From assembly GCA_036172245.1 (NCBI GenBank), contig JAYWIR010000001.1, positions 9,672,001 through 9,736,000 on the forward strand: a DNA stretch of 64,000 nucleotides. Direction: 5' to 3'. The notes below the pieces were generated by a model. That model worked only from the letters and a program-made list of their open reading frames with translations. It was not told the origin of the DNA and ran no database searches. A program made the position numbers and the translations under genes. Of this stretch, positions 20,101 to 26,669 are shown in pieces. Positions within the stretch are counted from its first letter, which is position 1. Every line of letters begins with the position of its first letter. The DNA is from Raillietiella orientalis. Lineage: Eukaryota.

Positions 20101-23100
20101 CGACCTGGGACGGGGACTTGCTACGCCGCGATGGACTCCCGACCGTCTCACCTCTATCCAGTAGTACTTCCTGTAGACAAGCCTCCGCGGTCTCCCGTCG
20201 TGGTGGAAGCGGAGTGTGGCCGTGATGGTGGCGTTTGCCAGGATGGCGGCCATGACCAGAACGTGGAAGGCCGCAGAGTTCAGCACGTTCACGAAGCACC
20301 TGGGGGCCAGACCCTTCTTGCGATGGTCGTCGACCGTCACCAGCTTCCATCCCCAGCCGTCGCATACCAGCACCTGTGAGCAGGCGGCGGCGGCGCCTCG
20401 CACGAATCTTGCCGGCCGTGCGGCCCCTTGCCTGGGATGGGGAGTTGTCGGCTAGGCGACCCCGCACGCCCCACATCTCGTTGAACTGCACGCGGATCTC
20501 GTTGAACGTCTCGGTGATGACAGCAATGAAGACGTTCTTCACCAGCCAGGACAAGAAGAAGATCATAGTGGTGAAGTAGATGATGGCACGCCAGCTGGGA
20601 AGGCTATCCACGGCGCGATGCATGATGTACACCCAGCCCTCCTGGGTGGCCGCCTGATACACAGTGAACAGGCTGGTGGCTGCAAACAGACCGTGGGAGG
20701 GTTGAACCGAATCCACCAACGGGGATGGACGGCTGTCCGAAAGGGCGAAACCCTGAGGCATTGGGAAGGGTTTTCATCTTTCGTCATCCGAAAATGGGAA
20801 CAGAGGAAGGCTAGCCAAAGAGAGACGGAGAGGAGGGAGAAGCGAAAAGGTGAGCTCGAGATGAAAGTACGAAGCGGAAGGAAAGGAGGAACGGTGGGCG
20901 GCGTAAACCCGATGGAAGACGGGAGGACAAGAGGAAAACGAAACACTGGGAAGCAACGGCTGGGGAGAGGCAAATAGGGATAAGCGAGTCGGGAGGGGAA
21001 AGGGAGAGGAGGATGAAAGGAAGAGAAGGGGGATGGAAATCCACCGGACAGAGAAGGAACTCAAACGCAGAGTGGAGGGGGAAGGAAAGATGGAAAACGA
21101 AAGCACAGGAGTGCCCGGAACGAAAACGAGGTCGTCCCAGCCGCCCGAGGTGGGAAGACGAGAACCGGAACGCCAAAGCAAGGAGCAGCGAAGGGCGGCC
21201 GCGAGGGACGCATCTCTCACCGAACTCGTCGAAGCCGCTGAACCCGATCTTGTACTTCGAAAGTTCCAGCCGCATGCATTTCATTCCCGGAGGACACTGG
21301 TAGCCGGAGTGCGGATCCATAGAGCAGAAGGTGTCCGGCACCGCCAGGCTGTTCAGAGTGACGCAGCTTTCGAGGGAGAGGGCAAAGAGATCAGCATCAC
21401 GTCTCTGAAAAGCGTTCCGTCTCACTTCGACGTCGTGTTGCTCAGAACGCAGTGGTTCCTGAGCTCTCCGAAGAACTGGACCCCGAGCAGCCCGTACAGG
21501 GACATGAAGAACGTGAAGAACAGAGTCACATTGTAGATCTGCTGGCTGGAGCGCCTATTCTTCGCCTTTAGAAGAAACGCGCATCCGGTGGAAGTCACAG
21601 CTTACTTGAATATCTGATTGATTCTGGACTTGGGCATGGAGAACTTGAGGAAGACGCGGATGAAGCGGATCATGATCAGGGGACGCGGGGCTCGGAGGAT
21701 GGACCAGTAGGAATAGGGGTTTACCAGCCCTGCCATCTCGCACATCTGGATCAGAACGGAGATCCACAGAAACAGGACCATGGTGGCGTCGAACTGGCAC
21801 CAACGATCCCTCAAGTAAGCCGCGTCACCCTGAAAGAGAAGGCGCAAGAGTGTATGAAAGGCACCACTTAGGAGGGGGGAGGGGAGGTGATGATTCTCTC
21901 CTCCGTCTCACCCCTTTCGCTACCAGGAAGGAAGGGAACGCACCCTCCATAGTCCCCTGATGTGCATTTTGACGATCATCTCGGCTGTGAAGATGAAGGC
22001 CACAAAGAGATCCGCGCAGAACGTCACGAAGACCAGGAAGGGGTAGTGCTCGAACGTCTTCGGGGTGTTCAGACTCACCGCTACCAGGCTCAGCATGGCG
22101 CACATGCGAAACAGCTTCTTGATCCACTCCTTGGGAAGTGGAAGATCAAGTCAGCAGAAGGGTCGTCCCTGACCCCCGAAAAGGGACCAAGATCCTCCAA
22201 GGAAAGTGACGATGAGCTCGAAAAAAAGGCCTCGGGGGGCTCGCTGTTCCTGTCTCGGATTGAGAGCGATTCGCCGGCGAGGCAATGGGCAGGAGACACT
22301 GCGCACCTCCCGAGGCTTGCGCGGCTTGTCGGCAGGGATCCGACGGAAAGAAAAGGGGAGAAGGAAAAAGAAGGGGAAAGAGAACTTTTGTTCTTCCCGT
22401 GACCACTCGAGGAGTCCACTCGAAGGACGAGTCCGTGGACTAGAGCCTCGTCGCAAGGCAAGCACGAAAGCCCCGCTCGACCCCGCTCGCTTGGTCAGCA
22501 GCGGTGGAGGATGTGCGACACCTGATCGGCTGCCGCGTCGGCTCCGTGCGCAGCTCGCCGCCTGGAAGGAAGAAACGGTGGGAGGGGACACTGCGACGAA
22601 GATGACGTGGGCGAGGACAGCGTCCACATCCTGCATGCGATCACGGAGTGTCACCTGTCGTGATTGAGTGCTCAGAAGATGTTCAGTCAGATGTTCGCGT
22701 CGGAGGCTACGGAGGGTCAACTAGTCAACTTCCAGTCCTAGCCAGTCAACGGGAGGTGGCATCCGGCTCCCACCAGTGCCTCACCCGAATAGGTCAACCA
22801 TAGTCATCTTGCAGGAGAAACTCGAAACTCGACGATGCCTTCCCTGTTCTCAGGATCCACCCTGCCCGGGCACGATTCGAACCCGCGACGTTCACTGCTG
22901 CGCGCGGCCGCCAACGCCATCACACAGAGAAGGGCTACTCGCTCGTCTCGGAGGACCAACTCGCGAAGAGGGGTTGCGACGACGTCCACCATTCCAGCCC
23001 CGAAAGAGGGAGAGGACCGAAACGAAGAGCCACTTTTCCCGGCAGAATCCAGGGGCGGAAACGTGGGGCGAGGTTTCTGGTTGTCGAACATACTGTGTTC

Positions 23101-26100: not shown

Positions 26101-26669
26101 ACTGCTCATATAATGTATTGAAAGTAAAAAAAAAAAAAAAAAAAAGGTTGTTTACATTCATGTTGTGTCGCGATAATAAACTGGTTCATCCTAAGTATTC
26201 TATAATGTTTGGTCAATTCAGTTAACCTACAGTTTCAAGTAACTCAAAGTTTCCGGTTGTTCGATGTCAGCGCAACGTACTGTTAGCATGAGCGACGACT
26301 TATAAAAATACTGGCCAGAAATTTCTAATTGTATTGAGCAATGAAAAAGATGGCAACGACTACTGGCATGCATTTTTAAGAATTCAAATGCACGTTGATA
26401 CTTAAACTTCTGCCTGAATTGTAATAATTCAAGCTATTGTGTGCAAAAAAAAAACATGTGAACCCTCTTCGTTTTTAGATCAGCGGATGAGCAAAAGGCT
26501 TTGGATAAGTGCCTGTGAATGCACTTGGGGTATTTATTCTAAATCGGTACATACGAAATTCCTTTACCTTGTTAATCCACTCAATGTCAGCACTTTCATC
26601 CAACGTTCCATCTGGCCCATAATCAGCCAAAACAGGTTCAGGACGTATGCTTAGTTTGTGTCCCAACAT
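14119..26669 (-). CDS. NALCN: Sodium leak channel NALCN (narrow abdomen/NCA family), 4x6TM, EEKE filter, 27 coding exons
   Basis: Hand-spliced in-frame model. Exons in transcript order: 26568-26669, 21944-22129, 21606-21829, 21426-21554, 21221-21366, 20432-20679, 20152-20373, 19937-20104, 19692-19883, 19478-19615, 19156-19362, 18746-18951, 18475-18591, 17995-18348, 17773-17893, 17582-17713, 17353-17520, 17097-17305, 16917-17037, 16625-16758, 16330-16495, 16082-16276, 15809-16026, 15522-15745, 14982-15255, 14758-14908, 14119-14667. Diagnostic peptides: [23 protein letters not shown], pore loops [79 protein letters not shown]-terminal EVMEWW. All introns GT-AG except one GC-AG. Confidence 0.97.
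18991..19143 (+). repeat. GA-rich tract filling a NALCN intron (CT-rich in pre-mRNA)
   Basis: Nearly pure A/G on + within intron 18952-19155. Similar tracts at 15337-15483 and 16770-16900. Confidence 0.85.
22852..22945 (-). repeat. tRNA-derived SINE-like head, copy 2, inside NALCN intron 1
   Basis: Same 17-mer with B box (22874-22890); upstream ttggcggccgcgcg vs tcggcggctgcgcg in copy 1. Confidence 0.5.

Follow-up and report, generated by a model that had tools for sequence, protein, structure and literature searches.

Can one gene be held in two base-composition regimes at once, and if so, what kind of boundary divides it? The question is raised by a 64,000-nt stretch of the Raillietiella orientalis genome (GenBank assembly GCA_036172245.1, contig JAYWIR010000001.1, positions 9,672,001 to 9,736,000 of the forward strand), referred to here as the window. 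A sequence-only reading of it had placed a sharp edge in GC and CpG content inside intron 1 of a gene for the sodium leak channel NALCN, had attributed this edge to a regional substitution bias and had argued against a random chimeric join. The analysis reported here favours, with slightly better than even confidence, a genuine and long-standing edge between two regional regimes of substitution between weak (W, A/T) and strong (S, G/C) bases, passing through intron 1 of an intact NALCN gene and linked to GC-biased gene conversion (gBGC).

The size of the step was determined across the whole window. GC content was 0.599 over positions 1–23250 and 0.375 over positions 23251–64000, and the observed/expected ratio (o/e) of CpG was 0.88 and 0.69 respectively. 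In a 1-kb profile, GC was 0.52–0.69 over 1–23000 and 0.30–0.49 over 24001–64000, with both regimes persisting to the window ends; both domains run off the window and are at least 23 kb (left) and at least 41 kb (right) long. None of the 300-nt windows in the left domain had a GC content of 0.45 or lower, values of 0.50 or higher were reached in three short patches only of the right domain, and the 300-nt GC ranges of the two domains hardly overlapped. The window contained no N bases. The two adjoining segments are each fairly homogeneous and differ in GC far beyond chance, as at an isochore-type boundary, and the feature is real in the sequence.

The position and width of the transition were estimated by model fitting over 13–34 kb of the window. 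A step model gained 530 log-likelihood units over a flat model, with the best change-point at 23235 and a 2-log-likelihood-unit support interval of 23226–23302. Sigmoid transitions with widths of 500, 1000 and 2000 bp fitted 2.0, 4.4 and 12 units worse than the step, and the transition is therefore no wider than about 0.5 kb. The 60-nt spot counts from which a crisp edge had originally been read were recovered, at 0.583 (from 22981), 0.50 (23221), 0.367 (23281) and 0.317 (23341). In the edge region no tRNA was called by ARAGORN, no Rfam family or tandem repeat was detected and notable direct or inverted repeats were not found.

The gene crossing the edge lies on the minus strand, and its identity was established by comparison with full-length relatives. 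A library-wide HMMER search with the open reading frame (ORF) of repeat IV returned such relatives, the best of which was Strigamia maritima T1INA8 (1742 aa). A tblastn search with T1INA8 was collinear from 26669 down to 14131, spanning residues 1–1728 with 1198 well-aligned residues, exons 2 to last accounting for residues 35 to 1728. Ten ORFs over 15097–22150 matched Pfam PF00520 (Ion_trans), and the T1INA8 alignment covered all four repeats, I–IV. Named NALCN proteins were 84–91 % identical to the exon at 14984–15259, the best matches to this conserved exon being from crustaceans and Strigamia (88–91 %), and in a tree the gene fell within the arthropod clade (SH-aLRT 99) with its position inside the arthropods not resolved.

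The full-length similarity includes the conserved N-terminus. Exon 1 aligned to human NALCN residues 5–35, had 22–25 of its 34 residues identical to arthropod N-termini and, in a phmmer search of the PDB, matched NALCN chains only (5/5, with E up to 10). Exon 2 aligned to human NALCN residues 37–95 (E 6.5e-18), and its PDB matches were likewise confined to human NALCN (5/5, E ~7e-18); no close relative of exon 2 was found in the sequence search. Judged by this similarity, the gene is identified as a complete, intact arthropod NALCN. Intron 1, which contains the step, had a GC content of 0.593 over 22130–23240 and 0.36 over 23241–26567, and its length far exceeds that of the 20 remaining gaps that separate conserved blocks (47–676 nt).

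The continuity of the gene across the edge bears directly on the possibility of an assembly misjoin, whether between two organisms or between two distant places in one genome. Both exon 1 and exon 2 were matched by 60 of the 91 NALCN references exceeding 1300 aa, and in 60/60 of these arthropod references the end of exon 1 and the start of exon 2 abutted with 0 residues missing or repeated; the human NALCN alignment agreed on this adjacency. The splice sites (donor AACAAG/GTAAAG, acceptor CCCAAG/GAGTGG) and the 17-residue reading across the exon 1–exon 2 junction were as the sequence-only reading had given them, and its argument against a random chimeric join is borne out by this adjacency in the references. 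The N-termini of 8/8 arthropod references matched the exon 1 site at 26669–2656x only (E 3.8e-7 to 8.8e-15), and tblastn with T1INA8 placed neither exon 2 nor any later NALCN exon on the AT side. A hidden exon 1 of high GC content and a second copy of NALCN were both considered and rejected, the GC side giving no N-terminus match at E < 0.07.

Unlike the sides of a chimeric join, the two sides are not unrelated in gene content: their exons complete one reading frame, and both carry arthropod-like genes without close relatives. One public sequencing run, probably of DNA, matched the stretch (Logan contigs, share 0.07) and possibly represents the source sample; no RNA run was among the matches listed. 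Compared over 13501–33500, it contained exact unitigs of 151–208 nt on both sides at similarly low depth (2.4 on the left and 2–4.8 on the right, with some bins without cover), contig depth in this run being no measure of copy number. A misjoin would have had to unite, by chance, two correctly oriented NALCN pieces within one and the same intron and with complementary exon sets, no exon being lost or doubled, for which we estimate a probability of no more than about 1e-5 from intron length relative to genome size. A chance misjoin would thus be very unlikely, because the exons abut in all 60 references and no second exon 1 is present, and the feature is almost certainly biological.

The codon and non-coding composition on either side was then compared. 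For coding DNA, G/C-ending codons numbered 13 of 34 in exon 1 and 39 of 44 in the exon at 16625–16758, in agreement with the earlier counts. Over exons 2 to last, GC at third codon positions (GC3) was 0.77–0.93 in 21 conserved blocks of at least 13 codons, and GC at positions 1 and 2 remained within 0.38–0.50 in all blocks of the gene. One intact gene is therefore divided between two GC3 regimes that switch within an intron, as in genes of the mouse Fxy type. A GC gradient inside NALCN was also considered and rejected, since GC3 had already reached 0.83 (47 conserved codons) in exon 2, at a distance of 1.1 kb from the edge.

At four-fold degenerate sites, GC was 0.83 on the left (n=539) vs 0.31 on the right (n=202), and 18/18 degenerate amino-acid classes were more G/C-ending on the left. 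The non-coding DNA followed the same pattern. GC was 0.60 between the conserved NALCN blocks and 0.605 over the 14.1 kb 3' of the gene, as compared with 0.36 in the AT-rich part of intron 1 and 0.386 in the 5 kb upstream of exon 1. Synonymous, intronic and intergenic sites all shift at the edge, as expected for an isochore-type boundary and for the regional substitution bias that had been proposed. The W-to-S shift, which extends to all synonymous families as well as to the non-coding flanks (0.60 vs 0.36–0.39), is also the pattern expected of gBGC.

The same data bear on gene-specific selection acting on NALCN codon usage or mRNA GC content. Such selection would fit both the excess of four-fold GC (0.83) over nearby non-coding GC (0.60) and the high GC3 of the NALCN exon in several of the metagenome loci described below. 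However, the introns and the 14 kb flank without a recognised gene are also GC-rich, the same mRNA has an AT3-rich exon 1, and the step lies inside an intron and not at an exon edge. As introns, intergenic DNA and all 18 degenerate classes shift alike, codon selection is not the cause; it is largely refuted by the non-coding data and we regard it as scarcely tenable.

The amino-acid composition of the encoded proteins was compared with that of reference proteins. NALCN had fewer FYMINK residues than the reference in 6/6 comparisons, and the glutamine-dependent NAD synthetase NADSYN1, encoded on the AT-rich side, had fewer GARP residues in 7/7. The opposite directions of this drift are a hint, albeit a weak one because the reference proteins carry biases of their own, that the two regimes have acted for a long time.

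To separate the contribution of CpG from the overall shift, GC was calculated outside the dinucleotides CG, TG and CA and was still 0.533 on the left vs 0.275 on the right. CpG decay or methylation as the sole cause, one of the possibilities listed in the sequence-only reading, was rejected on this basis. The CpG o/e was lowest in gene bodies on the right (0.33 at ADRM1, 0.44 and 0.57) and was 0.74–0.99 on the left, which suggests that germ-line methylation differs between the sides too.

These CpG values, which would be expected if only the right side were methylated in the germ line, also favour a regional mutational bias, in which the two compositions arise from domains of chromatin, replication timing or methylation that differ in mutation spectrum, rather than from a recombination-linked fixation bias. 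Dinucleotide ratios beyond GC content step at the edge as well. The TpA o/e in 2-kb bins was 0.33–0.43 on the left (6/6 bins) and 0.57–0.75 on the right (9/9), and that of TpG/CpA rose from approximately 0.9–1.1 to 1.15–1.37. Human isochore edges have been placed at a switch of replication timing in the major histocompatibility complex (MHC) and at a switch of recombination at NF1, as described in a section of PMC10295253. Against a mutational bias, the GC difference outside CG, TG and CA indicates that CpG decay is not the main cause. Switches of replication timing extend over tens of kb at the least, as against the 0.5 kb or less seen here, and a mutational equilibrium of 83 % GC at four-fold sites would be unusual for an animal. 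Overall, a mutational bias is a credible but unlikely account of the edge.

Recombination-linked gBGC would most likely be the cause, in preference to mutational bias. It is favoured because it is widespread in animals, acts on all site classes and could naturally explain why the edge is no broader than a conversion tract; its reported occurrence includes decapod and isopod crustaceans (a section of 10.1101/184283). Under this explanation, A/T-to-G/C changes would be preferentially fixed on the left at every weakly constrained site, comprising NALCN exons 2 to last, their introns and the 14 kb 3' flank. The right side, with NALCN exon 1, the promoter side of the gene, ADRM1, NADSYN1 and the TM2-domain (TM2D) gene, would remain at an AT-rich level. 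The edge would be the point at which recombination and its heteroduplex tracts stop, so that the transition would be no wider than a conversion tract (approximately 0.5 kb or less). If the composition of the right side (GC ~0.31–0.37) reflected mutation alone, the left side would need, as a rough estimate, a bias B, scaled to population size, of ~1 in non-coding DNA and ~2.3 at four-fold sites. The edge itself is probably old.

A more specific version of gBGC is that NALCN straddles a fixed pseudoautosomal-type recombination edge, or a site of obligate crossing-over beside a non-recombining block, and would be an invertebrate counterpart of Fxy/Mid1. In that case gBGC would have raised GC at four-fold sites to 83 % as far as a border no more than about 0.5 kb wide, with exon 1 staying at 38 % G/C-ending codons. 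We consider this version doubtful.

Several observations weigh against a gBGC-linked edge. The TpA, GpC and TpG/CpA o/e values all step at the edge, a change that is broader than a plain W/S shift and is unexplained. Four-fold GC on the left (0.83) is far above the non-coding value (0.59–0.60), whereas a uniform gBGC equilibrium predicts similar values, and this too is unexplained. No TTAGG telomere repeat occurs in the 64-kb window; of the causes proposed in the sequence-only reading, gBGC, a chromosome-end position and a chromatin domain are not told apart by composition. The dinucleotide signature distance (delta*) was 189 across the edge vs 37–95 within the domains, and such a difference, taken alone, is what two different genomes would show. 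No repeats shared between the sides were found by blastn, internal repeats also being scarce (1 and 0). None of the 8/176 pieces of the public run listed bridged 23.2–23.3 kb, where bin depth was 0.48 and unitigs were short.

The last three of these observations, together with the absence of an exact 40-mer across the edge from metagenome contigs (0 matches), are also points in favour of an assembly misjoin. They are set against the adjacency of the NALCN exons, the lack of N bases, the arthropod-like genes on both sides and the similar run depth. We weighed gene continuity more heavily than the dinucleotide and repeat evidence, and a misjoin of any kind is judged improbable.

Introgression or hybridisation would account for the edge by a crossover in intron 1 that brought in a GC-rich segment from a GC-rich lineage. 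A single crossover gives an edge sharp to the base pair, and sides that differ in signature like two genomes would follow. However, a GC3 of 0.86 vs 0.35 implies that most synonymous sites differ, which is probably beyond the tolerance of intronic recombination or of a viable hybrid, and no sequence supporting a donor was found, the metagenome loci described next all being distant. This origin is therefore considered very improbable, and a gBGC-linked edge is retained as the preferred explanation.

Metagenome contigs were also scanned with a conserved NALCN exon. The scan returned 40 loci, all of them distant, with 64–75 % protein identity over conserved blocks in the 8 loci checked for this. 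GC3 in the matched exon was 0.86–0.91 in 6/15 loci checked (L004–L008 and L010), and on this evidence GC-rich NALCN genes appear to exist in other arthropod-like genomes. At one of these loci (L010, ~10500–14000), GC per kb was 0.41–0.67 across NALCN and then 0.30–0.35 just 3' of the gene. This suggests that the location of NALCN in GC-rich DNA beside AT-rich DNA may not be unique to the Raillietiella orientalis genome. The metagenome loci are not close relatives and carry no information on the age of the edge.

The coordinates of the two domains, the NALCN parts and the other recognised genes are given in Table 1.

Table 1. Features of the 64,000-nt window, in window positions.
Feature	Coordinates	Strand	Description
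GC-rich domain	1..23235	none	GC 0.599, CpG o/e 0.88; extends to the window's left end
Change-point interval	23226..23302	none	Support for the GC step, maximum at 23235
AT-rich domain	23236..64000	none	GC 0.375, CpG o/e 0.69; extends to the window's right end
NALCN coding exon 1	26568..26669	-	34 codons from ATG; AT regime, GC3 13/34
NALCN intron 1	22130..26567	-	4438 nt, phase 0, GT..AG; contains the GC step
NALCN exon 2	21950..22129	-	3' end approximate; first exon of the GC regime, with the step 1.1 kb away
NALCN exons 2 to last	14131..22129	-	Four Ion_trans repeats and C-terminal tail, by tblastn and Pfam
ADRM1/Rpn13 gene	31716..33250	-	Pfam PF04683 (Pru) and PF16550 (UCH-binding); AT regime
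NADSYN1, glutamine-dependent NAD synthetase	52421..54930	-	Pfam NAD_synthase and CN_hydrolase; AT regime
TM2-domain (TM2D) protein exon	62062..62610	-	Pfam PF05154; AT regime

The three mutually unrelated housekeeping genes recognised on the AT side, ADRM1, NADSYN1 and TM2D, had a GC3 of 0.28–0.42 and are AT3-rich like NALCN exon 1. GC3 was 0.31, 0.30 and 0.41 in three matched pieces of ADRM1. In NADSYN1 it was 0.37 across 440 codons and 0.28 within the CN_hydrolase piece, and in the TM2-domain exon it was 0.42 for the domain itself and 0.33 for the whole ORF. For NADSYN1, 5206 homologues were found, the best being ~50–53 % identical, and in a tree the protein formed a very long branch beside the arthropods. 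The terminal branch of the piece at 52421–53740 (minus strand) measured 2.8 changes per column vs a median of 0.29, despite a best identity of 52 %; this 440-codon ORF may consist in part of unspliced or rapidly evolving sequence. A weak IIGP (interferon-inducible GTPase) match at the window's right end (63647–63919, plus strand; E 0.0027) was below cut-off.

The sequence-only reading had described introns, intergenic DNA and transposable element relics on the left as GC-rich, and this held for the first two; for the relics the support is a single weak match. A Pfam search of both strands of the left side gave, beyond Ion_trans, only one zf-RVT match (5789–6043, plus strand; E 0.00025, 22.1 bits against a cut-off of 27.5). 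Apart from this match, the 14 kb 3' of NALCN show no sign of a retroelement relic and contain no recognisable gene. The only dispersed repeat in the window, with copies at 10136–10247 and 22724–22830 (112 nt, 77 % identical), lies wholly on the GC-rich side, and its second copy is inside intron 1, 0.4 kb from the edge. By eye, a tRNA-like T-arm motif can be made out directly after that copy, but neither ARAGORN nor Rfam calls anything there.

Tandem GA-rich arrays were located at 3482–3565, 13311–13469 and 19043–19131. Purine-rich (GA) low-complexity sequence at 14835–15501 and 26841–27507 had a summed contig depth of 320 and 71 in the public run vs ~1–5 elsewhere; GA-rich simple sequence is abundant in the sample of that run and present on both sides of the edge. 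Within the AT-rich domain, a CpG-island-like patch was observed at 37702–38492 (GC 0.56, CpG o/e 1.11, 300-nt windows of up to 0.72 GC). Long ORFs overlap there on the two strands, with no Pfam match, and the patch may mark a promoter or represent a small GC island. Weaker GC patches were present at 44727–45384 and 47644–47949.

The step amounts to 22 GC points overall and, in GC3, runs from 0.38 to ~0.86. If the join is confirmed by reads, the locus would be a natural experiment in which one transcription unit, with one expression level, is exposed to two opposite base-composition pressures a few kb apart. Regional neutral forces could then be separated from selection on codon usage, and the edge would provide a sub-kilobase ruler for the reach of the GC-favouring process. 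The locus would also mark where a border of recombination, sex linkage or chromatin could be sought in this genome. Tools for gene prediction or contamination screening would go wrong at loci of this kind if they take composition to be uniform across a genome or a gene.

Among known systems, steps of this size and narrowness have been described at the pseudoautosomal boundary of the mouse and at a small number of isochore edges in human; for arthropods none is known to us, and full-text literature searches, judged by the titles and abstracts listed, gave none. The human isochore edges at MHC class II/III and NF1 are a few kb wide and have a smaller GC step, in contrast to the 22 GC points within about 0.5 kb or less seen here in an invertebrate genome. 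These edges resemble that in NALCN in joining adjacent long segments of different GC content at a definable junction, and they are reported to coincide, at MHC, with a switch of replication timing and, at NF1, with one of recombination and linkage disequilibrium (a section of PMC10295253). In animals in which gBGC drives heterogeneity of GC3, GC3 and flanking non-coding GC co-vary irrespective of gene function, as they do here; the variation there is between genes, whereas here the step is inside one gene (a section of 10.1101/184283).

The most similar case is mouse Fxy (Mid1), which like NALCN is an intact gene with low-GC 5' exons, high-GC 3' exons and an intronic switch. Exons 1–3 of Fxy are X-specific and exons 4–10 lie in the pseudoautosomal region, the pseudoautosomal part being GC-richer, a difference ascribed to a very high rate of recombination, accompanied by biased gene conversion, on one of the two sides (a section of PMC3431222). 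NALCN differs from Fxy in its arthropod host and in having only the first coding exon on the AT side. The feature in Raillietiella orientalis is a compositional domain edge of the Fxy or isochore-boundary type, in an unusual host and of unusual sharpness.

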